Positions 27,806 to 50,593 of a DNA stretch of 64,000 nt are shown here, piece by piece; positions within the stretch are counted from its first letter, which is position 1; each line of letters starts with the position of its first letter. Source of the stretch: a plasmid; the sequence record NZ_CP041047.1; one strand, written 5' to 3'. A program made the translations under genes and the position numbers. The notes beneath the pieces are model-generated. The model was not told the DNA's origin, made no database searches, and was given only the letters and a program-made list of their open reading frames with translations.

Positions 27806-27838
27806 TTCGTTTTTGGGGAGCCCGGTGGGCTCCTTTTT
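27806..27838 (+). terminator. rho-independent terminator-like hairpin
   Basis: GGAGCCCGGTGGGCTCC is followed by TTTTTTG. It lies downstream of a gene remnant (27634–27799, +) whose 5' end was cut off by IS1. Confidence 0.5.
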
Positions 27839-27915
27839 TGTGATGGTTCAATCCGGTGACGTGGGGTTACCGAGCTGGCGCATTCCCACGATTCGCACCT
27901 GATGGATTACCGGTT

Positions 27916-29529
27916 TTACTTGGTCAGTTCTAACCGGCGCTGATAACGCTCCCAGCGCATGACGAGATTCGCCGGGTCTATCGGACGGCAAAGCCCGGTA
28001 ATCACATGGCCATCGTATTGCTGCAAATCGGGATCTTCGGCCTGCGCGACAGGGTCAACGTGGACGGTCAACGTCTCCGGGCAAATGGCAAGGACGTTGT
28101 CGTCAAACAGCCGGTGCAGATCGATACGAAGCAGCAAGCCATTACTCCAGTGATCCAGACCACCAGCACTATGCTCTACCAGGTGTGCGGCCTCTGTCCT
28201 GCGGCGTAAGCTTGCTCCTGTAATCACGCAGCGGTCGTTACAGTTTCGACGGACGGTAGCAGCGAAATCAGCCTGATCCGGCCTGGTCACCACGCAGGTT
28301 GTAGAGCCTTCACGTTTAGGGTGCGCCAGGGGCGCAACAGACGGTTCCTGCATGGAGACGCGGGATTGTTCAACTTCGACGGAGATCAGGGCTGGCTGGG
28401 GTGCTGGCTGCGATTCTCGCACTACATCGTGCGTAATGCCGTTGGTTTCCGCTTCTTTAAGCTTTCCGACCTGGCTTGCTGCGGCCAGCGCACGGTCACG
28501 CGCTTCCTGCTTTTCTTCCTTCGTCCATTTACGTTTGGCAGGTTCGTGTGTGGGAGCCGGGAGATTATCTGGTTCATTGACCGGCACAGGGTCAACCATC
28601 TTTTTGCCTTGCATTGACTCAGCCATAAACCGGCGAGCCAGCACATCAGCGCGTAGTCCCGTATCGCGATGCTCATAAAGATAGGTGCGAAATTCCGTCA
28701 CACGTCCGCCCACCAGCTTAATGGCCTCACTCATTCCGGCCTTGTTGATGGAAGCGCTACTGGTTTTCAGGTTGGGCAAACCGTACTGACGTGGGTTTTC
28801 TTTCTGGGTGCTTTCAGCGCCGGTCAGACGGCTCTCTCTGATTTTTCCATTATGCCGGGTCGGTGAATCGCCATTCGGATGTTCAGGAGATCGCCAGGTG
28901 TCTGCGGGAGGCGTATACGTTGTACCGTTCTTCTGGGCCATGTAGGCGAGCACTTCCCGCATATCAACACGGGTCTTTTTGCGCTCGGCAATACCTTCAT
29001 CAATCTGACGTTCAAGATCCGCTCGCTTCTCTTTGTGCAGGCGGCGCGATTCCAGTACGGTTTCGTTATCATTCAGGCGTTCTACTATCTCACCGGTATT
29101 TAAATTCTGGTTTGCCAGTTCGCGCACCATGCTCAGCACTAAATCGCCCATTGGATGCCGGGTTGTGATACCCAGGCGCTCAAACGCCCGGTTGGTGATC
29201 TCGTTTCTGCGGGTTTGATTGGCCAGTTCCGTGATCTTCTTCAGGCGCTCGATTTCGGCAAGCTGTGCCCGCTTCATCAATTCGCTGCCGGTTAGCATGG
29301 CAACAATCTGAACCTGACTCTCACCCTTCAGTAAGTGCTCGGTGATGAATGTAGAAAGAGCTGCCCGCCCACCGTGATTTTTAGGGATACCCAGCGTGGC
29401 CAGAATGTCTCTCTTTAGAATATTACGCAGGTTAGCGGCCTTTTTTTCCGCTTCATGTTTGGCCTGCATGTCCCGGCTATGCTGCTTACGTTCGGCCCGG
29501 GTTTTCTTCACCTTCACTTTCGTCGTCAC
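27916..29529 (-). CDS. HNH_2-type endonuclease-domain protein with a long basic/coiled N-terminal region
   Basis: The C-terminal CVITGASLRRRTEAAHLVEHSAGGLDHWSNGLLLRIDLHRLFDD has the CxxTG…AAH…NGL…H..FD pattern. The N-terminal ~400 aa has no motif I recognise. Confidence 0.55.
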   Translation of the reverse strand: MTTKVKVKKTRAERKQHSRDMQAKHEAEKKAANLRNILKRDILATLGIPKNHGGRAALSTFITEHLLKGESQVQIVAMLTGSELMKRAQLAEIERLKKITELANQTRRNEITNRAFERLGITTRHPMGDLVLSMVRELANQNLNTGEIVERLNDNETVLESRRLHKEKRADLERQIDEGIAERKKTRVDMREVLAYMAQKNGTTYTPPADTWRSPEHPNGDSPTRHNGKIRESRLTGAESTQKENPRQYGLPNLKTSSASINKAGMSEAIKLVGGRVTEFRTYLYEHRDTGLRADVLARRFMAESMQGKKMVDPVPVNEPDNLPAPTHEPAKRKWTKEEKQEARDRALAAASQVGKLKEAETNGITHDVVRESQPAPQPALISVEVEQSRVSMQEPSVAPLAHPKREGSTTCVVTRPDQADFAATVRRNCNDRCVITGASLRRRTEAAHLVEHSAGGLDHWSNGLLLRIDLHRLFDDNVLAICPETLTVHVDPVAQAEDPDLQQYDGHVITGLCRPIDPANLVMRWERYQRRLELTK

Positions 29530-29539
29530 TACTCTTTAC

Positions 29540-30430
29540 CTGGCAGGGCATCATCATCATTGATACCGGTCGCGGAGGCCTGCGGTCGTTACCTATCCCC
29601 CGCCGCTGGCCGCACATTTGATGGCGAGAGTATACCTGCTCTGTCGGCAGCGCGTCTTTTCTTGTCTTCATATATGCAAAATTAGTCCAACATACAAAAG
29701 CGATCAGGGTCAACACCCCCGCGTCCACCCTGCAAAGCGCCCTTGACCTTAATACCCACTGAAACCCTCGCGCCCCCGGCCCCTCTTTTTTTTCTCTTTT
29801 TTTCTCTCTTTTTCTCATATTTTCTCGCATGGCTCATCCAGCGACCGGAGTCCCTATGTGGGGTTTGCAGGAACCGGACGGAAAGACCGGCACGGCCCGG
29901 TTGCCGCAGGCGGGGGAAATGGCCAGACCGGGCACGGCGGTTTCTTTTTAAAATGGTGGGCCCGGGCAGAATGGTTACCCCGGGCACGGGCCCGATCCTG
30001 AAAACGACACGGAGGTTTCAGGTACGGCTCCCCTTTCTGCCCCAAGCGAAGCGCAGGGGCAGAAAGGGGAAGTTTATTTGTATGTTGGACTAATAGAGGG
30101 TGATGTACGTGAATTCTGCCCGGGTTTTCCCGGCGATTATCCCGGAATCCATCACCGATATTCTTCCCTTTATCCTAATACCGGTGATGGCCACCGGCAC
30201 AAAATGCAGGGTGTTCCGGCCCGGCGAAGATGCGGCCGCAAACCAGCACGAAAGTGTCGGTCGGAAAAAGGTGAAGCCAATGCTGGTGGCCGCACGGAAT
30301 TCAGGCGGGCACTCGACGTTACTCACCCACGACTCCGGGTTAACGGTTCGACTCCGGGTAGCCTGGCCCGGGTGAAGCCCGGGGCAGGCTACCCTGTTTT
30401 TGTATGTTGGACTATTTTGACGGGTACTGG
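29540..30430. repeat. GC-rich non-coding region: two tandem structured modules, each ending in a hairpin+T-tract and the 15-mer TTGTATGTTGGACTA, plus an inverted copy of the 15-mer upstream
   Basis: The 15-mer is at 30079–30093 and 30399–30413 (+) and at ~29681–29695 (reverse complement). Hairpins CCCCTTTCTGCCCC…GGGGCAGAAAGGGG (~30035–30070) and GGGTAGCCTGGCCCGGG…CAGGCTACCC (~30355–30395) each precede a T-run. Confidence 0.5.
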
Positions 30431-30586
30431 AGCAAACCACTCTGCCACACGATATGGCATTTAGTTACCGCTCTTGCGGTTCATGGATGAAATAGTCGGT
30501 TCTGTCAGGAGGGAGTCAGGGAAATGTGAAGAACCGAAATGGCCACGCTGAAAGATCATGTAGCCAGTTCAGATAAGCAAATTGAG

Positions 30587-30805
30587 TTAACGCCCTCGCT
30601 CATACCGCACCAGCTCTTCAGGTTTAGACAACCACTCTGTAATCTGGTGATCATGCATTGACGTATCGTATTCAAAGTCTGGCGGATAATACATATCGCC
30701 AACAAACCACTCTTCCTGCTTTAATTCATCCTCATCTATATCACAACCGCTATCAAGCCAGTCCCATCGGCCTCTTTTGTTAAAAATCACTCTCCCATTC
30801 GGCAT
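30587..30805 (-). CDS. hypothetical small protein
   Basis: 72-aa ORF with coding-like composition. Confidence 0.3.
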   Translation of the reverse strand: MPNGRVIFNKRGRWDWLDSGCDIDEDELKQEEWFVGDMYYPPDFEYDTSMHDHQITEWLSKPEELVRYERGR

Positions 30806-31087
30806 AAAAGCTCCTTATTCAGTCAGATGGTTACGGTCTCGATATCTCGATGCCAGGTTAACATCGTTCACCAGTTTTACCACGGCTGGACGTTCGGCTT
30901 CAGTCCAGGAATCAGGCTGATAGTACACCCGCAGCGATTATCATCAAACTACTTCGCCTCTCAATCCCGCGCTCTCAAATTTCTGTTATGCATCATGCCA
31001 GAGTACAATATGAGGACACTATCGCCGGAATATTACCGACCGCCCCGACGATTAACGTTACCGGCCTAAGCTGAGGAAAATGGTTCT

Positions 31088-31411
31088 ATGAAGTCATTTC
31101 TGATCAAAATGTCAAACGCGCATAACGAACACATCCGGGAAGTCGCTTCCGTGGATGAAGCTATTCGTATCGCATCCGAAAGAGCAAATGAAGGTTTCTG
31201 GCTTCCACCCAGCCGGGTCTGCGAAATGAGCAAGGAACATGAAGGCCGGTATACAGTCGGTGATGATGGCTGGTTCCGCCCCATCGAGCTGGCGGTTCCA
31301 GTCGAAATAGAAGAAGTGAAGTCGTCCTACGGGAACGGTGGTTACGACATGATTTCCGTAGGCAAATGGATCCAGACTCAATCAGGCTGGCAACCGTCAC
31401 CGGCTGTCTGA
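31088..31411 (+). CDS. hypothetical protein
   Basis: 107-aa ORF preceded by GAGGAAAA, a plausible ribosome-binding site. Confidence 0.4.
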   Translation: MKSFLIKMSNAHNEHIREVASVDEAIRIASERANEGFWLPPSRVCEMSKEHEGRYTVGDDGWFRPIELAVPVEIEEVKSSYGNGGYDMISVGKWIQTQSGWQPSPAV

Positions 31412-31446
31412 CTCTCCTTTTGTTTCGGTGGGGCTAGAGTGCCCCA

Positions 31447-32370
31447 CTATTCTTCCGCTTTACGCTCGCGTTTTTCTTTGTCGCACTTCACTTTTTCATA
31501 AGCCTTGCCAAACCACTTAGGCTCTTTTCCCATCCCCGAATAAGATAGTCCTTCCGGCAGACTCTTCCAGAACACCGTTATCGCCTCGGCAAATTCTCTA
31601 AACTGTTCCTCGGAAACTTCAAGTTCTTCGTGGCGAGCTGGTCTCTCTTGCGGATAACCTTCGCATTGCCATACTGAGTAGTACTCCGGGTGAGCATTAA
31701 CCAGTTTCTGGTGGGCATCACCATCTCCATGTTTATAAACGTTGACAACCTGATGACATGCACTGATTAACGGGAAACATGGCATGTTTCGTACTTCAAT
31801 ACCCAGCCATTCCATCAAATCCATAAGCCTCGGAAAACTGAGGTTCCAGATCAAATCTGATATCACAACCATGTCGAGCCACCGCCAGCTTCTGGCCTCC
31901 CGGATAAGCAGATCTCGTAATGCCTTGTCAAACTGGTGGTACATCCCAGCGGTCAGGGAAAGCGTGACCGTGACCTTCATTTCCCGCAACGCAACCCAGT
32001 GGCAAGCTTCAATCTGTTCAATATTCTCGTATACGTCACTTTCGTCGTGGTAATCAGGATTGAACCAGTCTCCAGCTGACTCTATAAATGACTCGCCTTT
32101 CTTTGTCGCTTCACTCCTGATCTCCACATCACTGAACTGCGACAGCAAACGTTCCTGCGCTTGTTCAGCGTAAAAAAGATGCGGGTTAAGCACCCACGGT
32201 CGGTCAATTGCCGCAAAGAAAAAGATGTTCCATCTCGGGTCGATAATTTCTTTTTCAGCATCAACAGCTGGCGCTGATACACTGCGGTTTGATTGTTTTT
32301 TTCTACCCATACCACTATCCAAATTAAAAACAGACGAAAAAAAACCGTCCAGCTGGACGGTTAATATCAA
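31447..32370 (-). CDS. hypothetical protein (~290–307 aa)
   Basis: Long ORF with no recognisable motif. MGRKKQ near 32310 is an alternative start. Confidence 0.45.
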   Translation of the reverse strand: MILTVQLDGFFSSVFNLDSGMGRKKQSNRSVSAPAVDAEKEIIDPRWNIFFFAAIDRPWVLNPHLFYAEQAQERLLSQFSDVEIRSEATKKGESFIESAGDWFNPDYHDESDVYENIEQIEACHWVALREMKVTVTLSLTAGMYHQFDKALRDLLIREARSWRWLDMVVISDLIWNLSFPRLMDLMEWLGIEVRNMPCFPLISACHQVVNVYKHGDGDAHQKLVNAHPEYYSVWQCEGYPQERPARHEELEVSEEQFREFAEAITVFWKSLPEGLSYSGMGKEPKWFGKAYEKVKCDKEKRERKAEE

Positions 32371-32550
32371 AATATCCTTCAGAAGTCTGACACGGGTCAG
32401 GCGCTAACCCGGGCAGTCGCTACTCACTAATTAAACCCCGCATAGGGGAAAACAATATTTTGATACTCCGACAACGCACCCCGCGATGGGGGAAGGTATG
32501 TCAGGCCAGTCTAACAAACCCAAAGCTCGTTGCAACCGCCAATCAGTGAC

Positions 32551-32925
32551 TTAATCCTGGCAATCCTGATCATCAGTTTCAGTTCCGCAACTTAAGTAAT
32601 CCATATTTAAAAACATTTTGTTCCCCGAGCCTGCCAATGCAGACAGACCTGAGATTTTACAGATCACGACAATCGACGGTACGCGTTTATAAATCTCGAT
32701 TTCGCTTTCCCAACTTGACGCAAGATACCTTTCAAGCTGAAGTTCAGGGGTTACATCAACAGGTTGAATTCTGACCACAAAACCGTCTTTTCGCCCCTCA
32801 TTGCGAAGAGATGTTAGCTGTTTTATCTCTGCATCGTTGAGTGTGGAAAATTTACGGCCATTAAGAATATGAGAGCAAAAATTGAAGCCAGTGATATGAG
32901 ATGAGCCACCAGTTATCGATTCCAA
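32551..32925 (-). CDS. hypothetical protein
   Basis: 124-aa ORF. Confidence 0.35.
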   Translation of the reverse strand: MESITGGSSHITGFNFCSHILNGRKFSTLNDAEIKQLTSLRNEGRKDGFVVRIQPVDVTPELQLERYLASSWESEIEIYKRVPSIVVICKISGLSALAGSGNKMFLNMDYLSCGTETDDQDCQD

Positions 32926-33130
32926 AATGCTTGCATATTAGCTATCTGGGGGTTAGGCTCGCCTGTTTGCGGAGTGGATTCACATAATTCAAGGAGTCTT
33001 TCCAATTCCGATTTGGAATCACCCATACCCAATTCATTGCAAGGAAAAACATTGTGATTATTATTCATGAAAACTTGTCAACGCCAAGATTTATGGCCGT
33101 TTTTCGCCATTTTTAATGTCCGCTATTTGA

Positions 33131-35100
<1,970 letters not shown>

Positions 35101-35226
35101 GTCGATGTCCTTTCTGGTGTGAGAACCTCAAGGAAACAACATGTTGGGTGGAGCGGACAATTCAAATGGTGAATTACCGTCTTATATCATTGGCGCTAAC
35201 AAACTCCGTAGCATTAGATTTGAAGG

Positions 35227-35625
35227 CTAGTTTTCAACACTATGGGATCCCGAAATAAGTTCTCCCCCCCGCTCCCGGTAAGCTTTCGTTAATACCGCAT
35301 AACTTTCTGAATTAACATGCTCATCAACCCCCGAACAAATCAGCCGGTTCGTCGGTGCTTCAAAAGCGTGGCGTTCGTATTTTTCGACCACGCGACAATC
35401 TTCCGACCATCTCTTGCCGAGCAACAAATCATTTGTGGTAATTGATGGAAACATCATCAATGCAAAAATTCCCCCAAGACAGCCTATTGGCACGAGCCAC
35501 ATGCAAACGATCTTGTTTTCGGAGCGTACAAATTTCAACCCGATGGTAGCGCCTATGATAGTCACGACAAATACCACCAGCAGAATTTTTAAGGGTAAAA
35601 TCAGATCTGCGGCATAAATTAGCAT
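35227..35625 (-). CDS. hypothetical membrane protein
   Basis: 132 aa with 2–3 hydrophobic helices. Confidence 0.35.
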   Translation of the reverse strand: MLIYAADLILPLKILLVVFVVTIIGATIGLKFVRSENKIVCMWLVPIGCLGGIFALMMFPSITTNDLLLGKRWSEDCRVVEKYERHAFEAPTNRLICSGVDEHVNSESYAVLTKAYRERGGELISGSHSVEN

Positions 35626-35646
35626 TAATCATATCTCCTTAACTTT

Positions 35647-35964
35647 TCAATATTTGGTTCCTTCAAAAAGCCATCCATACTTTCCTTCATCTGGATGATC
35701 TGTCTTGTAGTTTATCTGGCAAGTGGTGAACTGACGCATCCATTCTCGTGACCTAAAAAATTTCCCACGAGGAAGTTTATCGCCAGGTAAGCATTGTTCA
35801 GCCCATTCGACAAAAGCAGGACAAACCCCCTTAAAGTGAGGAATAACAACTTGCGTGGCTTCTTTACGCATTACTGCTGACTGAATGGTTTTGGGATCAA
35901 TCGTCATGGCTTCACAGGCTAACCCGACTTCACAAACATTTCTATTCTGCTGATGTTCTGTCAT
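35647..35964 (-). CDS. hypothetical protein
   Basis: 105-aa ORF. Confidence 0.35.
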   Translation of the reverse strand: MTEHQQNRNVCEVGLACEAMTIDPKTIQSAVMRKEATQVVIPHFKGVCPAFVEWAEQCLPGDKLPRGKFFRSREWMRQFTTCQINYKTDHPDEGKYGWLFEGTKY

Positions 35965-36051
35965 AGCGCCTTCCAGTTGAAGTTAAGTAGGGTCAGTTTG
36001 GATTTGAAAATTGTTGTACGGTAAGCCTGTTCTTGAACCTGCTTCGTGATC

Positions 36052-36537
36052 TTATGCCCGTTTGATGGCCACGGACTGACGCAAAAGTGCAAGAACGTCA
36101 CTGACACTCATATCCCACGCATCCGCCTGCCGTTTCAGAATAAATGCCCCTACTTCCATTCTTTGGGCATGGTTCAACATATGCGTCAGCATATCCCCAC
36201 CATGAGAAAAGTTTATCCCGCAGCCGGATGCACCATTGTTGATGAGCGTAAAACCTTTGTTTTTATCGGTTCCGTGAAAGTTTGCCCTCATCTCCTTTTC
36301 CAGCCCGAACAATACCGCGCAACATTGAGTTAATTCATAGCGATTCAGCTGGATGACGCGCTTAAGCTCCCATTGGGCTTCTTTTGCGCCATCAGCAATC
36401 GGAGCCATAGTGATGTTCACCGTGGGAAACGCATCCTTACCAGGCGAAACCACATATTGAAAATCAAGAGCAGTACGTTTTGCGCCCGTTTGCCGGTCTG
36501 CATAAAGCTTCAGCTGCTTACCAAATGTCGAAGTCAT
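36052..36537 (-). CDS. hypothetical protein
   Basis: 161-aa ORF immediately downstream of the repA1 iterons. Confidence 0.4.
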   Translation of the reverse strand: MTSTFGKQLKLYADRQTGAKRTALDFQYVVSPGKDAFPTVNITMAPIADGAKEAQWELKRVIQLNRYELTQCCAVLFGLEKEMRANFHGTDKNKGFTLINNGASGCGINFSHGGDMLTHMLNHAQRMEVGAFILKRQADAWDMSVSDVLALLRQSVAIKRA

Positions 36538-36564
36538 AACTATCCTCCAGAACTTAATTTACCC

Positions 36565-36670
36565 TGGTCATTCCAGCCGACAAAAGATTGTCGGGTTGTT
36601 TTCTACAGGCCTTCCCTCTCAATCCCACCGGGTATATTTTCCCCTTCCCTCTCGTTCCCACCGGCGATAA
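36565..36670. repeat. iteron-like repeats (CCTTCCCTCTC..TCCCACCGG) downstream of repA1
   Basis: Two clear copies of a ~22-bp CCCACCGG-containing motif. Confidence 0.5.
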
Positions 36671-36947
36671 AAACTGTGCAGATTAAAAAAGTATCTTTTT
36701 GGGATTAGGCGAACAGCAGTAATTATAAAGAGGAGTGTTATTTTCTTTATTTTTCATGGTAATACAAGTTGTATTCAATAGAGGCCTGACGCGCCCCATC
36801 AGCTTTTCAGATGTAAATGGGACTATTTATCCTTTAGCGACTACAAAATCACGGGTGGGTTTGAGAGGGAAACGTCAACTTAGTGTTTTTGACCGGTGGG
36901 AATGAGACAGCACATTCCCGGAACCGGGCAAAAAGACGTTTCAAACA

Positions 36948-37814
36948 TCAGGAACCTGTTAGTTTGGGATTCCGATCCGTGATCTGAATGGTGGGTACGC
37001 TGGTGTCCACCAGGTAGTAAAATTTCAGGTAACCGATGCTGGCAAGCACATCGAGAGCAGTTCGCATTTTCCGGTTCTGTTCGGCAATGCGCCCATTGAG
37101 CAGTAAACGCTGTCGAAGTCTGTCAAAGGTGATCGGGGCTGGATGTTGAGGTAGCGCTTCAAAAAATGTATAGAGCGCCTGAGCCGTTTCATTCCTGGTA
37201 AGTAGCTCCAGGGGTTTCTTCCGCAACAGAGTAAGATGATCTGAACGGTACAAATCCCAGAGTCGTTCGTCGGCTTCCAGGATGATGTAATCACTTTCAC
37301 CATCAAATTCCGCCTCTTTCAGCAACCCGGCTACTTTGAACTTGGTGATCCCCGGGTTCTTCTCAAACCGAATGCTTTTTGAGCGAATCTTCGTCAACGA
37401 ATCGGCTATCTCATTGCGCAGTTTCGTGCTGTAGCGTTTTGATGGGTAGCCGCAGAGTTTGGCAAATTCACTAAAGGGCATTTTAATCCGGTTACCTTTC
37501 AGCGCATCAGGCGATACGCTGAAGGAATGGACGATTGCTGTCCAGCACCGGAAGTCCTGGAAATAATTCAGCATCGGGCCGGTGATCTTTATGTCCGTGT
37601 ACCCTTCCTGTTTTGCAATTTCCAGACTGGATAGCGCTTCCGTCACGTTTAGCGTGACCGTTGCCTCTGTTCGGCAACTGGGAGTAAAAACGCCCAGGCG
37701 GAGCAGTGATACAGGTTGTACTGATGAATTTTTTGTCACCGTCAGCTTTCCAGTCGACGGCTGATTGAAGTCGGGAATAGCGTCCTTGAAAAGAAGAACT
37801 TCATTCGAGTTCAT
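36948..37814 (-). CDS. repA: RepFIB-family replication initiator RepA (replicon 1)
   Basis: 288 aa. …LLRLGVFTPS…SAQALYTFFEALPQHPAPITFDRLRQRL… closely parallels the RepFIB RepA conserved blocks. Confidence 0.75.
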   Translation of the reverse strand: MNSNEVLLFKDAIPDFNQPSTGKLTVTKNSSVQPVSLLRLGVFTPSCRTEATVTLNVTEALSSLEIAKQEGYTDIKITGPMLNYFQDFRCWTAIVHSFSVSPDALKGNRIKMPFSEFAKLCGYPSKRYSTKLRNEIADSLTKIRSKSIRFEKNPGITKFKVAGLLKEAEFDGESDYIILEADERLWDLYRSDHLTLLRKKPLELLTRNETAQALYTFFEALPQHPAPITFDRLRQRLLLNGRIAEQNRKMRTALDVLASIGYLKFYYLVDTSVPTIQITDRNPKLTGS

Positions 37815-38124
37815 CGTGTGGATCCCCCAGTTTTATTGTTATTTTCCGGGTATCTTGGAATGCCCAGTCCGGGCGAATGTATCACGGTGATTTTTATTGA
37901 TCATGAGAAATAGGGGTCATTTAGTCCCCATTTATCGGGTATTGGTTTTTATTTGTACTAAATCAATACGTTATTTCAGAGATGAATCGGATAAATGTCG
38001 TTGACATCAAATTTTTGATCTGCTGCCAGTGTGGACAAAAAATGAATACCGATCACCTATTTTTGAGATTTGTTACGTATGATTATGTTTTTATTTGATG
38101 TTTTCATTAGCACAGCAGATGTTG

Positions 38125-38265
38125 ATAATTAAGTTCCTTTCCCCTTCCAATCCCACCGTTATTCCCTTTGAACACCACCAGCTACCAGGCTAACCCCACC
38201 GACAGCCCTTCAGAGCTCACTTTTTTCCCTCTCAACCCCACCGGGGCAGGTCTTCAGAGCTTACC
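38125..38265. repeat. iteron-like repeats (…CCAATCCCACCG, AACCCCACCGAC, CAACCCCACCGGGG) upstream of repA1
   Basis: Three or more CCCACCG-core repeats sit beside an AT-rich stretch with a DnaA-box-like GTGTGGACAAAA. Confidence 0.5.
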
Positions 38266-38386
38266 AGCTGCGGGTTTGCGGGAGCGGGGATCTTTTTGGT
38301 TCTATTTGGTCTTAATCTGGATCGATCTGTTGATCTACCCGGTGGATATGTGGATTAGTTGAGTCACGTCCTTGTTACTCGGTTGC

Positions 38387-38764
38387 TTAAATTTGGCCAC
38401 TACGAACTGTCTCAATACCACTCTGAACAACATCCCAGTTGATACCGATATCACCATCGTGAGTTCGGTCTATCAACGCTAAGGTCGACTCAGCTTCGCT
38501 AGCTGAAACCTGCGGCATGTTTCGGTCTATTGCTAACTCCTGAACATCAGACTTGTACCAGACACGGACTAGCACCTTTTCGTCAGGGTTCATTTTTTGC
38601 AGCTTTGCGATAATTTCTTTTGCAGTTGCGTACATGTGAGTGCCTCTTATCGTTTTGTTTACACAATCAGTAAAGCACCGAGTCAGTAGCTGACGAAGGC
38701 AAAAAAGATACTTTTCCACAGGACAGTTCCAATAAAGAGATCCCAAAGGTGCAACGGAGTACAA
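38387..38764 (-). CDS. hypothetical small protein between the two replicons
   Basis: 125-aa ORF. The real start is probably MYATAKEI… at ~38635. Confidence 0.25.
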   Translation of the reverse strand: MYSVAPLGSLYWNCPVEKYLFCLRQLLTRCFTDCVNKTIRGTHMYATAKEIIAKLQKMNPDEKVLVRVWYKSDVQELAIDRNMPQVSASEAESTLALIDRTHDGDIGINWDVVQSGIETVRSGQI

Positions 38765-39350
38765 AAGAGATCCCTGTACGCTGCAAGCCGCATGGTTACT
38801 GGGCTCAAGGGCATTTTATGACAATGGTAATGACTTTTTTGACATTGGTAATGATTAAAATGACATTGGTAGTGACTATTTCGACGTTAGTAGTGAGTAT
38901 TTGTGACAATGGTAGTGAGTTTTATTGTGTGATCTGAAGGTATAACTCTTAAAGAGTTTTGAGTATATTTCTATTATAATTCATATAGATACCATCTATC
39001 ACCTGTATGATGAAACAAAATTATTAAAATCTTATCCACTGTTTTCTATACGCATTTTCCTTTCATGCCCGTACATATTTTCGACAATTTAGCTATTCGA
39101 TGTTGATTTAACTCGAAGAGAGAATTTATCCCCATTTTCCACAAGGTAGTTCCAATAATTAGTACCTTACGAGTTCCCATAGATCACAAGAGATCCCCGC
39201 AGCTCGGAAGCCAGACGGCACAAGGCCTGGAAGCCAATCGGTGACAACGGTAGTGATTATTTTGACATTGGTAGTGAGTTTTTTAACGGTAGTAGTGAGT
39301 TTTTTGACAACGGTAGTGATTGCGGCGACAATGGTAGTGATTTTTTAAAG
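38690..39350. repeat. tandemly duplicated origin module upstream of repA2: two copies of [leader with AGTTCCAATAA / AGAGATCCC motifs + five ~21-bp direct iterons GACAWYGGTARTGAKT]
   Basis: Direct iteron clusters are at 38818–38925 and 39241–39350. Leader motifs recur at ~38700 and ~39140. An AT-rich stretch follows each cluster. Confidence 0.65.
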
Positions 39351-39560
39351 GATCTTTTTCACCGGAATTGATCCTTTGTTGATAAACTACGTATGTATTT
39401 GTTTTTATGTGAATTTCAGAGTTTTATATTTAGTCGTGGCGTTTTTTTAGCCTGGACTTATGCACAATCTGAGATCGTCGCAGAGATCCCTTAAGTGACA
39501 CTGAGGGCTTTGGGCGATAGTATTCAATAATCTGTTGATTAATACAGTCGATAAACCACT

Positions 39561-40679
39561 ATGACCAATGAGAAAGATTCTGAGCAGCAAGGCCAGATGG
39601 TTACCAGGGCTTTCTCTGTAACAGAGAGAGAGACAGGTAAAGAAATTATTTTACGTCCTAATAGCAGCAGGACGGTTCAGTCTATCGCGCTCATGCGCCT
39701 TGGGTTGTTTGTGCCATCACCAAAAAGCGTTGGCCGTCAGAGTCGTGAATACAAAACTGTTGGCTTTGATGCCACGAAAGAACTACAGACACTTTCTTTG
39801 ATGGAGAGCGAGGGTTTCACCAATATCTCGATCGTGGGTCAGCGCCTCGATATGTCTGTTGACTTCAAAACGTGGATGGGAATCATCCGAACGCTAGCTA
39901 ACCATCCGATTGATAACGATAAGATCAGCCTCAAATTTACTGAGTTTCTGAAGCTCTGTAACCCTGAAAATTATCGTTCCTCTACCGCATCCCGTAAGCG
40001 TATCGACGCGTCGTTACGCAGGCTGGCATCCGTGATGTTGTCCTTCACCAGCACCCACTCGTCAAAGGTGTATACGACGCACCTGGTGCAGTCTGCCTTG
40101 CTTGACCCGGACTCTGATCAGGTAGAGCTACAGATAGACCCTAAGATATTCGAGTTGTATCAGTACGACCACAAGGTTTTGATGCAGCTGAAGGCTATCA
40201 AGGAACTGGCGAAAAAAGAGAGCGCACAGGCGCTTTACACGTTCATTGAGTCACTTCCACCAAATCCAATCCCGATCTCCTTAACGAGACTTAAGAACCG
40301 ATTAAATCTTAAGACCCGTGCCAACAGCCAGAACGCCACAGTACGTAAGGCATTGGAGGAGCTGGCATCCATTGGTTACCTTCAGTACACCGAAGTAAAA
40401 AAAGATGGGAAGGTTTATTTCCAGATCCACAAACGCGATCCTGATTTGAATCTGAACAATATCCAACCACCACCTGATGGTGATGGCGAGGGTGATGCTG
40501 ATGAGGAGAACAATGGCACGTCGGGTAAAAATAATGGTGAGCCACTGGAAGGTGAATTGTGCCCACCAGATGAGCCCATTGATGGGGATGAAACGTTAAC
40601 CATCCATGACTTAACAGCTGAAGAACTTCACTACATTCGCAGCCTTAGAAGCCAGAAAAAGAACAATCCCGCCAGCTAG
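39561..40679 (+). CDS. repA: RepFIB-family replication initiator RepA (replicon 2) with an extended acidic/Gly-rich C-terminus
   Basis: 372 aa. …IALMRLGLFVPSP…RLDMSVDFKTWMGIIRT…ESAQALYTFIESLPPNPIPISLTRLKNRLNLK… matches RepFIB RepA blocks. Confidence 0.75.
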   Translation: MTNEKDSEQQGQMVTRAFSVTERETGKEIILRPNSSRTVQSIALMRLGLFVPSPKSVGRQSREYKTVGFDATKELQTLSLMESEGFTNISIVGQRLDMSVDFKTWMGIIRTLANHPIDNDKISLKFTEFLKLCNPENYRSSTASRKRIDASLRRLASVMLSFTSTHSSKVYTTHLVQSALLDPDSDQVELQIDPKIFELYQYDHKVLMQLKAIKELAKKESAQALYTFIESLPPNPIPISLTRLKNRLNLKTRANSQNATVRKALEELASIGYLQYTEVKKDGKVYFQIHKRDPDLNLNNIQPPPDGDGEGDADEENNGTSGKNNGEPLEGELCPPDEPIDGDETLTIHDLTAEELHYIRSLRSQKKNNPAS

Positions 40680-40744
40680 CATTCCCTCCGGGCTGTCAGA
40701 TGACGGCCTGGAACCCTCCCTCCCTGCACATCGTCAGAGAATCC

Positions 40745-42200
40745 TGTTTAGCTTAATGACAACGGTATTGAGTGACGCGGTCACTACTGTTGTCATTGCG
40801 GGGTGACCACTCATGACAATGGTAATGAGACTAGATAGCTCACTACTGTTGTCATCATCGACATCTCTCCAGACCAGCTTCTCAGGGAAGGTCTTACACC
40901 GCTCACTACCATTGTCGGAATCGCCGGTACAGACAAATCGCTGATACCCATGACACCATGACATCGGCAATGAGTCTTGGCAGCTCACTGCTGTTGTCAT
41001 CATCGACAACTCTCCAGAGCAGCTTCTCGGAGAAGACCTCATACCGCTCACTACCATTGTCGGCATCGTCAGTACGGATTTATCGCTGATTCCCATGACA
41101 CAATGACAACGGTAATGAGTGATTTGACTCACTACCGCTGTCATTTGCTCCCGGCGCATTTGAATGACCACTGTATTGACTAAGAATACTCACTACCGTT
41201 GTCATTCATGATTCAGACCAAGTTCTTACTGCTCCACCAGCACAATGACAACGGAAATGAGTTCTGTTGGTCATTACCGTTGTCATATGCATTCCAGGTT
41301 AATCAGGCCTTTCAGGTAGCTATGGTAAGGATTCACTCGCCGTACTGTCTGCTCGTACTTGAGGGGCGGGATGAATGACCGTGGTAGTGACCGCGTCACT
41401 CCCTGTCGTTGTCGTTGTATGAATACATGGCCTGTCGGTGACAATGGAAATGAGTCCAACCGCTGTCGTAGCTAACCTGATTGGTCAATGACAATGGATG
41501 TGATTTTTTCAAGTCTCTACCATTGTCATCGTTTCCAAGTACATTTCAGTGGGGTCGTTCCGGCGATGACGAATCAAGTGAGTGCGGGATCACAACCATT
41601 GTCGAGGCACAACTTGCCGGTTGTAGCCATACCGAACGCTGCGACAACGATAGTGATCTCGATCACTCATTACCGTTGTCACCAGGCGGATGGTGAAGCA
41701 CCAGAATCACTACTGTTGTCATCTAACATTCTGCTACCCATGCAACCAATGACGATGGTAGTGAGCAACGCCGTCTACTTGCTGTATATAGGGATAGTAT
41801 GATGAGCCATAACAATGGTAATGACTCACTACCATTGTCATAGTTCCTGTACTTGATTGCCGGTAACCAGACAAGGGTTAACCATTAAGTCACTACCGTT
41901 GTCATTACAGAAAGGTACTTTCCTTAATTGTCATTACCGTTGTCGACCATGCACCCTCTTACCAGTAGTAACGGTTCGTTAATTATGTGAAGGTGATCAT
42001 TACCATTGTCACTGGTTACACTCCCGGCAGATTCAAAAATCGAGTGACAATGGATGTGAGTTCGATGCGCAGGACGGCATCTCAGTGCCGATGGCAATAG
42101 TTATGAGCTGACCAGACTGGTGACAACGATAATGAGCCAAGCATTGAAGCCCGTTTGCTACGACAACGGTAATGATTAGGCCTCACTACCGTTGTCAGAC
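40745..42200. repeat. ~1.45-kb array of >30 iteron copies, mostly arranged as inverted pairs (TGACAAYGGTARTGAG–N6-10–CTCACTACYGTTGTCA)
   Basis: Counted by eye, e.g. 40757–40800, 40812–40858, 40965–41010, 41105–41145, 41245–41286, 41643–41683, 41810–41840 and 42160–42197. The motif is the same as in the direct iterons upstream of repA2. Confidence 0.7.
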
Positions 42201-42207
42201 ACGATGC

Positions 42208-42927
42208 TTACTTCGGCCAGGTAAGTTCATCCCACCGGGATTTTAACCAGGCAGGGTTTACAGGTTTTCTTGTCGGTAATATTGGCCGAGCTTCATACGC
42301 GATGAGATCGTCATCCTTAGCCAGGATAGTGGGGTGGAAATGGATTGTCAGGGTGCTGGGATTAATCACACACAGGCCGTTGTCGTATAACCGATGTATG
42401 TCTGCCCGAAGCCACAGGCCATTACTCCAGTGGTCAGAGCCCGCTTTATGATGCTCAATCAGATGTGCTGCTTCTCCCCTGCATTTTGTCTTCACACCGG
42501 TGACGACACACCGCTCCATGCAGTTGAAGTATACCCTGTCGCTGAATTTCTTCTGATCAGGACGGGACATCGCACCGTACCGGCGATATCCAAAGCGTTT
42601 TGGTGAGACTTTCTCATCCAGGTCATCGTCAAATGAATCCTGACTCTCAGGCCGGAAGGTCTTCAGACGAACTTCCCAGCGAATGCCGTCACGTGCAAAT
42701 TGCTGCCCTACGCGTGGGTCATCATCAGGCCAGATAGCTATTCCCTTAGCTTTAACAGCCAGCCGGAACTGGCGGGCATCAGCAGGGGTTCCCGTGCGGG
42801 TTAGTGTCATAAATTCATGGACACTCCGGTACTCCACTGGTTCTCCTGATGAGCCAGCAGGCCTGGCGAGAACCTTGTCTTTAATATCGCGGGCGAGTTT
42901 ATCGGTTTGATTTTTATCTGAAGCCAT
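42208..42927 (-). CDS. HNH_2-type endonuclease-domain protein (paralogue of the 537-aa protein's C-terminus)
   Basis: CVVTGVKTKCRGEAAHLIEHHKAGSDHWSNGLWLRADIHRLYDNG aligns with the HNH block of the 27916–29529 protein. Confidence 0.55.
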   Translation of the reverse strand: MASDKNQTDKLARDIKDKVLARPAGSSGEPVEYRSVHEFMTLTRTGTPADARQFRLAVKAKGIAIWPDDDPRVGQQFARDGIRWEVRLKTFRPESQDSFDDDLDEKVSPKRFGYRRYGAMSRPDQKKFSDRVYFNCMERCVVTGVKTKCRGEAAHLIEHHKAGSDHWSNGLWLRADIHRLYDNGLCVINPSTLTIHFHPTILAKDDDLIAYEARPILPTRKPVNPAWLKSRWDELTWPK

Positions 42928-42989
42928 GTGAGCTATGCCATACCGGAAGAGGGAGGCATGAATAATGGGCTGTTTTCCGAGGATAAGCC

Positions 42990-43033
42990 ATAGATACTCA
43001 CTACTGTTGTCATTCTTGTCGATGACAACAGTA
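42990..43033. repeat. perfect iteron palindrome CTCACTACTGTTGTCATTCTTGTCGATGACAACAGTAGTGAG
   Basis: Seen directly. It lies between the HNH gene and the 141-aa gene. Confidence 0.7.
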
Positions 43034-43080
43034 GTGAGTCTGGTTGGTATGCATCATGTCGAAATCGGAGCACCGGTGAC

Positions 43081-43506
43081 TTATCGAATAGTCTGAACTG
43101 ACTTGTAATGCGCTTGTGCAGGGTGGCCATAAGCCGTATTCGAGCGTGGAACTTCGAGGTGACCCGGCATCCATCCGGTCGTTTTTGCAACCCAGAAACA
43201 GCGTTCCTCACCGTCATCGGTAGTGACTCTAACACGACAACCTTCAAGCCCAATTAGTTGGGGGGAAAGATTACCGGGGCAGCATTTCCGGGAAGCGTTA
43301 GCATATACCTGCCCGCGCCGCATGAGTTCTGCACATTGTTCAAAATGTTCTTCTGTACCCAGTGCAGCTACTGGTGCTTCAACGTCCATCCAGTCAGCTA
43401 CGGCGGTTGCTTTTGTATGCAGGAGATCAAATCCGTAGCTTGATAGAATAGAGCCACATTTAAGAACATAGAGCTGCTGCTCTTTGTTAATGTTTTCGAG
43501 TTTCAT
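43081..43506 (-). CDS. hypothetical protein
   Basis: 141-aa ORF. Confidence 0.35.
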   Translation of the reverse strand: MKLENINKEQQLYVLKCGSILSSYGFDLLHTKATAVADWMDVEAPVAALGTEEHFEQCAELMRRGQVYANASRKCCPGNLSPQLIGLEGCRVRVTTDDGEERCFWVAKTTGWMPGHLEVPRSNTAYGHPAQAHYKSVQTIR

Positions 43507-43617
43507 AGCCGCTCCTGTTAGATTATCGTTGCCTGTTATTTAAAACATGGCTTTTCAGTAAATAAATAACCACACCTGCATGACGATTGGGACGCGATAA
43601 TAAATAACGAGTATCTA

Positions 43618-43920
43618 TTAGCTTTGAGTGCCGAAAAAACCACAATCCATAAGTTGCTCACCAACGGTATTGTCGAATAACATATCGTCTACTGAAACTT
43701 CATAGCTATTCTCTGATGAAAAATATCCAGCGTTATCATAGTCGACTTCTAAAGCGTCACCATCAATAACCACAACCTCAGTATTAACGAAAAGATCATC
43801 AAGGTCTGAAATAACCTCAATATCTTCACTCTGTTCATCGGTAATGACAATGACAACCATATCATCTTCAAACTCGGAAGCTGATACTTCATCATATCTT
43901 GCTGCAATTAAATCTGACAT
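43618..43920 (-). CDS. highly acidic small protein (about one third D/E)
   Basis: 100 aa, MSDLIAARYDEVSASEFEDDMVVIVITDEQSEDIEVISDLDDLF…. Confidence 0.4.
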   Translation of the reverse strand: MSDLIAARYDEVSASEFEDDMVVIVITDEQSEDIEVISDLDDLFVNTEVVVIDGDALEVDYDNAGYFSSENSYEVSVDDMLFDNTVGEQLMDCGFFGTQS

Positions 43921-44056
43921 ATTAGCCTCCAGTTGAATGTGATTGCCTATATGTCTATATTACCACCCACATGCTTGTGACGAAGTGATTTGGCTTATTT
44001 TTAATCGTTTAAAACAAAAAAGCCACCCCGGTTATTTCCTTGGTGGCTAATTGATA

Positions 44057-44602
44057 TTATCCCTCGGCTAGTTCCAGCGCTTCCTTCTGGGAAGTGGCTT
44101 CACCGAACCAGACCAGATCATAATGCGTGAAGTCAGTAGATAACATGCTCCTGACCCGTTGTTCCTCTGTTGCCACAGTGCGGCTATAGACAGCTACACA
44201 GCGCTCTCTCTTCCCGCCCCGCAATGATGAAGGGCTGTTGAAAATCGCAAAACACATCGTTTCCGGCTTAACGTTAACCCCGCCCATTTTTTCAATGACG
44301 TAATCATAGGCAATTTTTTCAATGTCATAAAATGAGCCGTCAGATGACACCATTGAATATTTCAGAACAGTACCCCCCAGAGCTCGCTTAATCTGGTGCT
44401 CCCTTTGCTGCTCGTTGTTCCAGCGAAAGGTTTGACGGCTGCTGGGGTGTCCTACTTTCTGTTCCGCTTTTGCACGTGGGCTATAGCCGTCAGCAATGAG
44501 TGAATCCATAAATTCACGCATTGATAAAATCTTACCGTTATGACGAATTTGTTTGGCTAGGAAGTTTTCAATACGTTTTTCGTTGGCTTTTTGAAGTGTC
44601 AT
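44057..44602 (-). CDS. hypothetical protein
   Basis: 181-aa ORF. A GGCUAAUUGAU-type hairpin follows it. Confidence 0.4.
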   Translation of the reverse strand: MTLQKANEKRIENFLAKQIRHNGKILSMREFMDSLIADGYSPRAKAEQKVGHPSSRQTFRWNNEQQREHQIKRALGGTVLKYSMVSSDGSFYDIEKIAYDYVIEKMGGVNVKPETMCFAIFNSPSSLRGGKRERCVAVYSRTVATEEQRVRSMLSTDFTHYDLVWFGEATSQKEALELAEG

Positions 44603-44963
44603 TTTTTCTGGCCTATGGTTCGTTGTCGTTATATTCAGTAAACCATAGGTCGTTCATGTGACGAAACGTGTATTTATTCAACCCTATCTTCAATTATTTC
44701 GGTCATTAGAAAACGCAAATGATGATTATCGCCATCAGGATTGATTTTGTTTTTGTGATAATCCATTACGCTTACATTTCTTGCTTGTTTGAAGTGGTAA
44801 TTATCCATCGCGTTTACAGTTTTCTCATAGTAAGCTTCAGCTGAATAATCCAATAAACTTCGATAATAGGCAGCGACAACATCCCATCGACGATTTTCCG
44901 ATGCTTTACATAACTCTTCGTCGTCACCTATTGCCGCTATGATATAACCATATATATAGCCAA

Positions 44964-46197
<1,234 letters not shown>

Positions 46198-46263
46198 GAA
46201 ATTAATGTCGGATACGGCGCGAGCGCCTTATCCGACCAACTTATCAGGACGGAATGTTAAAAA

Positions 46264-46402
46264 TGAACATGTCGATGACAGAAAAAATAAAAGCAGGCAA
46301 GCTATTTACCGATATGTGCGAAGGCTTACCTGAAAAAAGACTTCGTGGGAAAACATTAATGTATGAGTTCAATCACTCGCATCCATCAGAAGTTGAAAAA
46401 AG
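46264..46402 (+). pseudogene. lacA: lacA 5' fragment (first ~46 codons), truncated by IS1 copy 3
   Basis: MNMSMTEKIKAGKLFTDMCEGLPEKRLRGKTLMYEFNHSHPSEVEKR matches the N-terminus of galactoside acetyltransferase. The lacY–lacA spacer contains a REP-like palindrome. Confidence 0.8.
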
Positions 46403-47168
46403 GGTAATGACTCCAACTTATTGATAGTGTTTTATGTTCAGATAATGCCCGATGACTTTGTCATGCAGCTCCACCGATTTTGTGAGCGACAGCGACTTCC
46501 GTCCCAGCCGTGCCAGGTGCTGCCTCAGATTCAGGTTATGCCGCTCAATTCGCTGCGTATATCGCTTGCTGATTACGTGCAGCTTTCCCTTCAGGCGGGA
46601 TTCATACAGCGGCCAGCCATCCGTCATCCATATCACCACGTCAAAGGGTGACAGCAGGCTCATAAGACGCCCCAGCGTCGCCATAGTGCGTTCACCGAAT
46701 ACGTGCGCAAACCGTCTTCCGGAGCCTGTCATACGCGTAAAACAGCCAGCGCTGGCGCGATTTAGCCCCGACGTATCCCCACTGTTCGTCCATTTCCGCG
46801 CAGACGATGACGTCACTGCCCGGCTGTATGCGCGAGGTTACCGACTGCGGCCTGAGTTTTTTAAGTGACGTAAAATCGTGTTGAGGCCAACGCCCATAAT
46901 GCGGGCGGTTGCCCGGCATCCAACGCCATTCATGGCCATATCAATGATTTTCTGGTGCGTACCGGGTTGAGAAGCGGTGTAAGTGAACTGCAGTTGCCAT
47001 GTTTTACGGCAGTGAGAGCAGAGATAGCGCTGATGTCCGGCGGTGCTTTTGCCGTTACGCACCACCCCGTCAGTAGCTGAACAGGAGGGACAGCTGATAG
47101 AAACAGAAGCCACTGGAGCACCTCAAAAACACCATCATACACTAAATCAGTAAGTTGGCAGCATCACC
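46403..47168 (-). mobile_element. IS1, copy 3 (766 bp; 2-bp deletion in insB)
   Basis: Inverted repeats at both ends. insA is intact at 46838–47113 (-). The insB frame is broken (…RKTVCARIR instead of …[11 protein letters not shown]) and there is also an F→L substitution (LSLTKS). Confidence 0.9.
46418..46919 (-). pseudogene. insB: IS1 insB with frameshift
   Basis: Comparison with copies 1 and 2 shows GACGGTTTGCGCAC where they have GACGGTTGTTGCGCAC. Confidence 0.8.
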
Positions 47169-48102: not shown

Positions 48103-49575
48103 TCAGTCGTCATCATGATACTCAGGGCCACCATAATTATCAAATCGAGACCATTGACCATTAAATGTGAGACGTACTGTCCCTATAGGCCCGTTGCGCT
48201 GTTTACCTATGATAATTTCGGCTATACCTTTCATATCGCTATTTTCGTGATAGACCTCATCACGGTAAATAAACATGATCAGGTCAGCATCCTGCTCAAT
48301 GGAGCCTGACTCTCGCAAATCTGAGTTTACCGGACGTTTATCGGCACGTTGTTCAAGCGAGCGGTTTAGTTGCGATAAAGCGATTACCGGTACATTCAGC
48401 TCTTTTGCCAGTGCTTTCAGAGATCGGGAGATTTCAGCAATTTCCAGAGTTCTGTTGTCAGATAACGACGGTACACGCATCAACTGAAGGTAGTCGATCA
48501 TAATGAGGCTAAGCCCACCGTGTTCGCGGGACAATCGACGCGCCCGGGAGCGAACGTCCATAGGTGTTAGGCCAGAGCTGTCATCAATGTAAATGTTCTT
48601 TTTTTCCAGCAGCAGTCCCATTGTGCCGGATAACCGGGCCCAGTCCTCGTCATCGAGCTGTCCGGTTCGGATGCTGGTCTGGTTGACGCGTGATAGCGAT
48701 GCCAGTGAGCGCATCATGAGCTGTTCCGTAGGCATTTCCAGGCTGAAAATCATGACGGGCTTATCGTTTGTCAGCGATACATTCTCGCAGATGTTCATTG
48801 CAAACGTAGTTTTCCCCATTGAGGGTCTGGCAGCGATAATAATCAAATCCGAGGGCTGTAGACCGGCTGTCTTCTTGTTCACGTCCACGTAGCCGGTATC
48901 AACTCCAGTGACCCCGTCATGGGGACGCTGGAACAAGGCTTCAATCTTGGTAACGGTTCTGTCCAGAATGCTGCTGATATTTTCCGGCCCACCGCTTTTA
49001 TTTCCCCTTTGCTCTGCAATCTGGAAAATCCGGCTTTCTGCAAGATCAAGCAATTCGTCACTTGTCCTACCTTCCGGGTTGTAACCGGCCTCGGTTATTT
49101 CGTTGGCAACTTTTATCATTTCCCTGATTACGGCACGTTCCCTGACGATCTGCGCGTAGGCAATTATATTTGCCGCACTGGGCGTATTTTTTGACAGTTC
49201 TGCCAGATAGGCGAAACCGCCGAGACTATCCAGCTTACCTTCTCCCTCGTTTTCGATGTGCTCAGCGAGGGTTATCAAATCAATCGGGAATTGATTCGCA
49301 ACGAGCGATCTCATTGCAGAGAAAATTGAGCGATGCGGTCGAGAACTAAAATCCTGCTCACTAACGATTTCTGCCACATCATCCCATCTCTGGTTTTCAA
49401 GCATTAACCCGCCCAGCACGGACTGTTCCGCTTCTATCGATTGCGGAGGGGTTTTTAAGCTGTATTCAGCTGTTTGCTTTGTCTCACCTGTTTCGGTAAA
49501 CGAGATGTCCGCCATAGTCATAAGTGGCCTCAGAGGTTCTGGAATAGCTTTTGTTTTTGTAATTGTCGTGCGCAT
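48103..49575 (-). CDS. DnaB-family replicative DNA helicase (plasmid/phage-encoded)
   Basis: AARPSMGKTTFAMN is Walker A. IMIDYLQLM is Walker B. The SQLNR and GKQRNGP motifs are present. The N-terminal domain reads …IEAEQSVLGGLML…. Confidence 0.85.
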   Translation of the reverse strand: MRTTITKTKAIPEPLRPLMTMADISFTETGETKQTAEYSLKTPPQSIEAEQSVLGGLMLENQRWDDVAEIVSEQDFSSRPHRSIFSAMRSLVANQFPIDLITLAEHIENEGEGKLDSLGGFAYLAELSKNTPSAANIIAYAQIVRERAVIREMIKVANEITEAGYNPEGRTSDELLDLAESRIFQIAEQRGNKSGGPENISSILDRTVTKIEALFQRPHDGVTGVDTGYVDVNKKTAGLQPSDLIIIAARPSMGKTTFAMNICENVSLTNDKPVMIFSLEMPTEQLMMRSLASLSRVNQTSIRTGQLDDEDWARLSGTMGLLLEKKNIYIDDSSGLTPMDVRSRARRLSREHGGLSLIMIDYLQLMRVPSLSDNRTLEIAEISRSLKALAKELNVPVIALSQLNRSLEQRADKRPVNSDLRESGSIEQDADLIMFIYRDEVYHENSDMKGIAEIIIGKQRNGPIGTVRLTFNGQWSRFDNYGGPEYHDDD

Positions 49576-50470: not shown

Positions 50471-50593
50471 CGAAAAATTTAAGACAGCAAAATGCGGCCA
50501 TTTATATGTGCAAAAATATGAGCCGGTTTATCCGGCCCATCAGAATGAAAAGGAATTTTATGCAGGTCTGTTAAAGACCTGCTGGGAGGTTAG

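Follow-up and report, generated by a model that had tools for sequence, protein, structure and literature searches.

Two divergent P1-RepA/RepFIB-like iteron replicons form the probable replication region of a pKPC-CAV1321-type enterobacterial megaplasmid

The 64,000-nucleotide stretch of sequence record NZ_CP041047.1 analyzed here (hereafter the window, to which all coordinates refer) carries two replication initiator genes, repA1 (36948-37814, minus strand), which encodes a tail-less, P1 RepA-like Rep_3 initiator of 288 amino acids, and repA2 (39561-40679, plus strand), which encodes a RepHI2-like initiator of 372 amino acids. The two are transcribed divergently from start codons 1746 bp apart. 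We conclude with high confidence that the two genes and their surroundings make up the replication region of an enterobacterial megaplasmid of the pKPC-CAV1321 type, with two divergent iteron replicons of the P1-RepA/RepFIB kind and a 1746-bp control region that holds three modules resembling the P1 replication origin, oriR. An initial annotation, made from the sequence alone, had placed two divergent rep genes of these lengths at exactly these positions and had read the pair as the replication region of a multireplicon plasmid, and both points hold. The span that it gave, 36948-40679, takes in the genes and the intergenic region, but the iterons reach outside it, and the full feature runs from ~36.6 to 43.0 kb.

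The assignment to a plasmid type follows from close relatives of the region. Across its whole length, the 36500-41500 part of the window shows 100% identity to its best plasmid matches; at least 108 sequenced plasmids share the region at 100%, and 109 records reach 99% identity or more. These plasmids are 200-400 kb in size, come from Citrobacter, Klebsiella, Enterobacter, Kosakonia, Raoultella, Salmonella and E. coli, and carry both rep genes under the annotation 'RepB family plasmid replication initiator protein'. In a public assembly collection, the exact RepA1 and the exact RepA2 are each indexed in ~6300 blocks. In PLSDB, MOB-suite assigns the plasmids to no Inc group and reports just Col(VCM04) or rep_cluster_2358, in most cases alongside a MOBH relaxase. 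One relative, CP126624.1 (228,564 bp), which matches window positions 37740-44964 at 99.945%, appears from its size and source to be pCIF11_1, a plasmid of Citrobacter freundii from produce that was assigned the PlasmidFinder type 'pKPC-CAV1321' (PMC11537058). The prototype of this type is pKPC_CAV1321-244 of C. freundii (PMC4879409), and a plasmid of the type has been reported as an mcr-9 carrier (PMC9769852). The rep region is 99.9% identical to that of pCIF11_1 and 100% identical over 5 kb to the best family matches; no difference was detected in the replicons, whereas accessory content (IS26, IS21, IS1 and the cargo bounded by ISKpn26) varies among members. IncHI4 (pNDM-CIT, repHI4A/repHI4B) was also considered as a type and was dropped, since a family member is typed pKPC-CAV1321 in the literature and RepA2 is RepHI2-like.

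Both initiators belong to the RepFIB/P1-RepA branch of the Rep_3 winged-helix proteins, as the initial annotation had proposed from conserved RepFIB blocks that are indeed present in each (LLRLGVFTPS and TAQALYTFFEALPQHPAPI in RepA1, LMRLGLFVPS and SAQALYTFIESLPPNPIPI in RepA2); the placement is supported by Pfam, by a phage protein profile, by pairwise identities and by a fold match. RepA1 matches Pfam Rep3_N (PF01051) with E = 1.9e-7 and 32 bits, over a gathering cut-off of 22.4, and both proteins match profile phrog_775 across about 290 of its 294 positions (E = 1e-89 for RepA1 and 2e-110 for RepA2). The two Reps align with each other over ~275 residues at 37% identity (E = 1e-53), and the alignment runs through the second winged-helix domain (WH2), directly after which RepA1 ends, as does P1 RepA. 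RepA1 is 44.5% identical to P1/P7 RepA across 91% of its length, and the two are of similar length and tail-less; it is 60% identical to the Rep of a Providencia MOBH plasmid and 40-47% identical to RepFIB-type proteins. As judged from these comparisons, RepA1 is a separate tail-less lineage, P1-RepA-like and with an iteron of its own.

RepA2 is 50-52% identical to classical RepFIB initiators. An AlphaFold (AF2) model of it, computed from a 30-sequence alignment, predicts a confident core of two winged-helix domains (WH1-WH2) at residues ~65-295, with a predicted local distance difference test score (pLDDT) of 70-93, followed by a disordered acidic stretch at 300-349 and a terminal helix at 353-368. 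A Foldseek search of the model against the PDB returned RepE54/RepE of plasmid F as its top five matches (probability 1.0, E = 1.7e-4 to 3.8e-4), aligned over 214-217 columns to chains of 217-224 residues, with both winged-helix domains covered. When the two Reps were compared by sequence with PDB chains, only chance matches came up, and a search of NCBIfam gave nothing.

The C-terminal extension of RepA2, which had been thought unusual, proves to be a shared trait: RepHI2 of IncHI2 plasmids has the same tail, at 85% full-length identity, and the terminal motif LTxEELxLLxxxRxxKK is common to most RepFIB-like homologues, with the acidic linker before it varying across the family alignment. To our knowledge, no function has been assigned to this motif. 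Among near-identical members of the plasmid family, the linker region (residues ~300-372, positions 40458-40679) is polymorphic in length but in frame, with DGDGEGDADEE, DGDGDEE and DGDGDGEGDADEE as variants and proteins of 367-372 amino acids as the outcome. Similarity to RepFIB replicons (IncFIB; F-like and Klebsiella plasmids) thus takes in the protein identities, a C-terminal linker with an LTxEELxLL motif in RepA2 and many RepFIB-like proteins, and iterons that flank repA on both sides; the iterons themselves differ, however, identity lies well below replicon-typing thresholds, and MOB-suite (PLSDB) assigns no IncFIB.

Each Rep had also been credited with its own iteron family, and counts in the window agree, in that each family is strongly over-represented and restricted to the DNA on either side of its cognate gene. 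The 15-mer iteron of RepA2, TGACAAYGGTARTGA, finds 48 matches at up to three mismatches against 5.0 +/- 1.9 expected, a number reached in none of 100 shuffles, and 44 of these lie within 38819-43226. For the 19-mer iteron of RepA1, TCCCTCTCAAYCCCACCGG (on the repA1 coding strand, GGTGGGRTTGAGAGGGA), there are four matches at up to three mismatches against 0.02 expected; relaxing the limit to five mismatches gives seven, all within 36613-38244 and flanking repA1. The bare 8-mer CCCACCGG occurs nine times against 1.5 expected, four of the nine flanking repA1. In the Providencia homologue, the iteron is related but distinct (GGTGAGTTTGAAAGGGA), with five upstream copies at a spacing of 21 bp and inverted copies downstream, and Rep and iteron therefore vary together, as true iterons should.

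The three window modules align, as do both of the corresponding IncHI2 modules, with the annotated P1 oriR (K02380.1) in their DnaA boxes, GATC heptamers, GC-rich spacer and five iterons. The module assigned to RepA1 (38141-38357, minus strand), which was delimited by reading of the sequence, pattern scans and this alignment, begins with putative tandem DnaA boxes, TAATCCACATATCCAC, at 38342-38357 (the P1 counterpart being TTATCCACATTATCCAC), continues through four GATC sites at 38289-38336 and a GC-rich spacer, and ends in five iterons at 38141-38244, spaced by 21, 21, 21 and 22 bp. RepA2 has two such modules on the plus strand. The proximal one, module 2 (39126-39385), comprises putative tandem DnaA boxes, TTATCCCCATTTTCCACA, at 39126-39143, GATC sites at 39182 and 39192, five iterons at 39242-39340, further GATC sites at 39351 and 39370 and a DnaA-like box at 39377-39385; a promoter-like TTGACA-17-GACAAT at 39304-39332 falls within iterons 4-5, although the promoter and terminator scan that found it was not above shuffle expectation and serves as a pointer only. 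The distal one, module 1 (38712-38918), is a diverged duplicate lying 423 bp upstream of module 2, with a putative DnaA box, TTTTCCACA, at 38712-38720, GATC sites at 38739 and 38769, and five iterons at 21-bp spacing (38819-38918). Between the two modules stretches AT-rich DNA (38940-39110), with 62-80% A+T in 50-nt windows and a peak of 80%.

The likeness to P1 therefore covers tandem DnaA boxes, GATC heptamers, five iterons ~21 bp apart and further iterons downstream of the gene. The two systems differ in iteron sequence, in the position of the iterons (overlapping the promoter in P1, 326 bp from the start codon for RepA1) and in the lack here of an adjacent parAB; moreover, RepA2 has two origin modules and ~33 downstream iterons, which are too many for the 285-bp incA of P1.

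Downstream of repA1, two iterons match on the plus strand (36613-36631 and 36646-36664) and two on the minus strand (36852-36870 and 36893-36911), and by analogy these would form a putative incA-like control cluster. The field downstream of repA2 (40757-42197, 1.45 kb) is far larger, with ~33 iterons in both orientations that include nine convergent pairs (16-26 nt from start to start, most ~25 nt) and a 145-bp unit present in 2.1 copies at 40812-41120; it is likewise a putative incA-like locus, for copy number. That this field is something other than a Rep-binding control locus, such as protein-coding DNA or a partition site, is very improbable. Open reading frames (ORFs) of 104-145 amino acids can be drawn across it, and its ~33 copies far exceed the content of P1 incA, only 285 bp long. 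Yet its repeats carry the same 15-mer as the origin iterons, in both orientations; RefSeq annotates no gene within it; and the field is kept in kind between the pKPC-CAV1321 family (145-bp unit) and IncHI2 (81-bp unit), the 15-mer being preserved while the length of the unit is not. A gene for an HNH_2 endonuclease (42208-42927) sits within or at the end of the field, with iterons on both sides, and beyond it lies an outlying divergent pair of RepA2-type iterons (42998-43037, with starts at 42998 and 43023). HNH_2 genes recur in the backbone, for example as a 537-aa gene upstream, and IncHI2 has no gene at the position of 42208-42927.

Several observations weigh against this picture of two P1-like replicons. 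RepA2 itself gives no match to Pfam Rep3_N, its only Pfam match at E up to 10 being a sub-threshold one to TrfA, and while homologues at 50-60% identity carry PF01051 and some also PF21205, its family membership rests on those homologues and on a model of medium confidence (mean pLDDT 66.7). The DnaA-box and GATC assignments are pattern matches backed by the P1 alignment. The origin iterons of RepA1 are degenerate, three of the five having four or more mismatches to the 19-mer, and they lie 326 bp from the ATG, as against ~25-57 bp in the Providencia homologue and P1; a simple promoter scan (overall not above shuffle expectation) found no sigma-70-like site for repA1. Finally, the searchable literature yielded neither experimental work on the two replicons of the family nor a published dissection of a pKPC-CAV1321-type replication region, for which reason the functional steps proposed here are modeled on P1, RepFIB and R478.

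By analogy with P1 oriR, incC and incA and with RepFIB, Rep monomers would bind the five origin iterons and DnaA the adjacent boxes, whereupon neighboring GATC-containing or A+T-rich DNA would open and the DnaB helicase would be loaded. Binding of a Rep to iterons that overlap its own promoter could provide autoregulation; repA2 may plausibly be controlled in this way, and for repA1 there is no sign of it. The iterons downstream of each gene, four for RepA1 and ~33 for RepA2, would titrate Rep and handcuff origins, keeping copy number low. A plasmid-encoded DnaB homologue lies at 48103-49515, ~7.4 kb from repA2, with a gene of the PAPS-reductase family and parB nearby in relatives; this DnaB may serve the plasmid's own replication.

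The two replicons do not appear to be of equal weight: the principal replicon is probably that of RepA2, with RepA1 in an auxiliary and dispensable role, because null alleles of repA1 occur beside intact repA2 and because the RepA1 iterons are degenerate and 326 bp from the ATG. One such allele, a C256T stop that leaves a remnant ORF of 177 amino acids, comes from two independent read sets and also from NCBI records, on contigs as long as 337 kb, and stands next to an intact, 372-aa repA2. Two further null alleles, one with an extra A at nt 80 (a +A frameshift) and one lacking C237, come from one read set each, and these indels may be read errors. Across the four repA1 variants (L016-L019), repA2 is intact beside three and broken in L017, the one with the +A frameshift; intact RepA1 is accompanied by intact RepA2 in 10 of 10 sampled places.

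A stronger version, in which only RepA2 works and the RepA1 replicon is vestigial or silent and incapable of autonomous replication, strikes us as unlikely, if worth serious weight. It would accommodate the inactivating alleles in otherwise intact relatives (C256T in two independent read sets, the two frameshifts in single samples), as well as the degenerate origin iterons, the gap to the ATG, the missing promoter-like match and the presence of only four downstream iterons. On the other hand, 108 plasmid records have the repA1 ORF intact and conserved at 100%, the exact RepA1 is found in nearly as many assembly-collection blocks as RepA2, the replicon keeps a complete P1-like origin (tandem DnaA boxes, four GATC sites and five phased iterons), and the related Providencia lineage retains well-formed iterons. 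Our preferred reading remains a principal RepA2 with a dispensable RepA1; a second replicon would enable the plasmid to withstand iteron-based interference, for instance from an IncHI2 plasmid with the same iterons.

For RepA2 the nearest known system is RepHI2 of IncHI2. A tblastn comparison with repHI2 genes shows 85.7% identity over residues 1-371, acidic tail included, and proteins annotated RepHI2 at this level of identity are found on ~1100 IncHI2 plasmids. In the IncHI2 plasmid pB39_H, the 15-mer TGACAAYGGTARTGA has 46 matches against 0.18 expected, and the base frequencies of the iterons are near-identical to those of the window; two P1-like modules stand upstream, 424 bp apart as compared with 423 bp here, and ~36 iterons lie downstream, with convergent pairs 25 nt apart in both plasmids. 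The systems differ in that the downstream repeat unit is 81 bp in IncHI2 and 145 bp here, nucleotide identity is only ~78% and confined to 39124-40461, the surrounding backbone has no DNA similarity, and the other Rep of the IncHI2 example (IncHI2A) lies ~13-14 kb away, whereas here a second, divergent replicon adjoins. These alignments show RepA2 and its iterons to be a close homologue of the IncHI2 RepHI2 replicon, with the same layout. The locus would accordingly be RepHI2-like in its working, yet the plasmid is not IncHI2: with ~78% nucleotide identity, no IncHI2A counterpart and no IncHI2 typing in PLSDB/MOB-suite, we do not file it there. RepA1 was also tried as a counterpart of the IncHI2A (RepHIA) Rep and rejected, its 40% identity to that Rep being no higher than its identity to other family members.

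The kinship with IncHI2 has a bearing on published typing. Most IncHI2 plasmids with mcr-9 have been reported as 'IncHI2A-IncHI2-pKPC-CAV1321' three-replicon plasmids (PMC12462442). This triple typing is probably a cross-match of the pKPC-CAV1321 probe on repHI2, at ~78% nucleotide identity, and not a third replicon. As nothing distinguishes the iterons of RepA2 from their IncHI2 counterparts, we also entertain, as a tentative idea that we hold short of favoring, that pKPC-CAV1321-type and IncHI2 plasmids may interfere through titration and handcuffing of their RepHI2-type replicons, with RepA1 as the back-up that enables coexistence. If so, an unrelated backbone would be functionally 'IncHI2-incompatible unless rescued', and the arrangement would also explain the co-typing just described. 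Complete E. coli genomes include five records (at most five genomes) that match at 99% or more, set against ~275 of IncHI2 type, which are too few for an inference about co-residence.

The initial annotation had further taken the plasmid to be integrated into, or decaying within, a chromosome. This is not supported: each part of the window can be found, at ~100% identity, on circular plasmids with the same two rep genes, and both rep ORFs are intact. Six plasmids carry a block that is 100% identical to positions 1-21071; of these six, at least four are also among the full-length matches to the rep region. Positions 25200-37000 find a contiguous match on plasmids, including an IS21-family element at 33076-35200 (istA at 33928-35100, plus istB) that is flanked by a 5-bp target duplication when compared with the uninterrupted plasmid L001 and that is inserted identically in many members. 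At 44964-47168, an IS1 transposase and a lacY fragment replace ~10.7 kb of backbone found in L001 and L002. From 47168 to its end at 64000, the window is colinear with the C. freundii plasmid pF2119-1. Here an ISKpn26 copy (50590-51791) is followed by a block of chromosomal type (malT, glpR/G/E/D and glg genes); in pF2119-1 the corresponding malT-glpRGED-glgPACXB-asd-gnt block stands between two ISKpn26 copies, inserted among backbone genes next to parB. The stretch 50590-64000 is, from this comparison, part of a captured chromosome segment of ~24 kb that is carried as plasmid cargo. Since such segments recur at ~100% in the same plasmid family, the 'chromosomal' genes are best seen as cargo captured by insertion sequences. 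In pF2119-1 the block runs on to gntR, a pirin gene and an oxidoreductase gene before the second ISKpn26, and it is also found on Enterobacter plasmids.

At the other end of the window, two inverted IS26 copies of 820 bp (21072-21891 and 24361-25180) join the 1-21071 cargo, which includes genes for a P-type ATPase, a MutS-like protein, a UvrD-like protein, a chloride channel and enolase, to the backbone. Other family members have this block more than 100 kb away and in the opposite orientation, and the junction therefore looks like an IS26-mediated rearrangement.

Integration does happen within the plasmid family. The rep pair is also present on contigs of more than 1 Mb, complete C. freundii chromosomes among them; examples are CP181957.1 and CP199763.1 of C. 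freundii (~5.15 Mb), NGRE01000001.1 (5.21 Mb, in which the window's IS21 insertion is present) and KK736165.1 (4.14 Mb). In CP199763.1 the pair lies on a 4.8-kb fragment between a Tn3-family/ars element and IS110, adjoining nrf and acs genes. That the window itself is chromosomal, with a plasmid or a piece of one integrated or decaying in it, is nonetheless improbable. The block at 51.8-64 kb (malT-glp-glg) is in chromosomal gene order, as such a reading would have it; however, its ISKpn26 junction with the backbone is the one also seen in pF2119-1, in which the second ISKpn26 closes the block and backbone parB follows, all window segments are found at 99.9-100% identity on circular plasmids with the same reps, both reps and all iteron arrays are intact, and the loci on contigs above 1 Mb are neither identical to the window nor colinear with it. 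The window is most probably part of a free plasmid, and nothing in it calls for integration. As for the CP199763.1 fragment, it contains a repA1 truncated to 249 amino acids, an intact repA2 and some of the iteron field. An intact iteron replicon within a chromosome would be notable; alternatively, some of the contigs above 1 Mb may be assembly joins.

Between the two replicons lies one small conserved ORF (38387-38635, minus strand; 82 amino acids in RefSeq, WP_016241546.1), which matches phrog_10258, a family of unknown function, with E = 1e-8. The IncHI2 locus of pB39_H has no homologous DNA for this ORF beside repHI2, the homology to the window beginning only at 39124. An Rfam search of 36.0-43.5 kb returned nothing at E up to 0.1, and megablast of the rep region against a phage collection gave no match.

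Sequence, plasmid type and kind of replicon were all known before, and the three P1-like modules, the iteron identity with IncHI2 and the dispensability of repA1 are routine extensions of that knowledge; no new biology is implied. The main value of the analysis lies in annotation and typing. The rep pair marks a very common megaplasmid family of Citrobacter, Klebsiella and Enterobacter that carries blaKPC, mcr-9 and other cargo and that MOB-suite (PLSDB) leaves essentially untyped. Within the pair, RepA2 is the better marker and target, because RepA1 appears dispensable. The chromosomal-looking blocks beside the replicons are cargo captured by insertion sequences and are not to be taken as evidence of integration. 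For the family as a whole, a RepHI2 homologue with IncHI2 iterons predicts cross-typing artefacts and possible incompatibility with IncHI2 plasmids.

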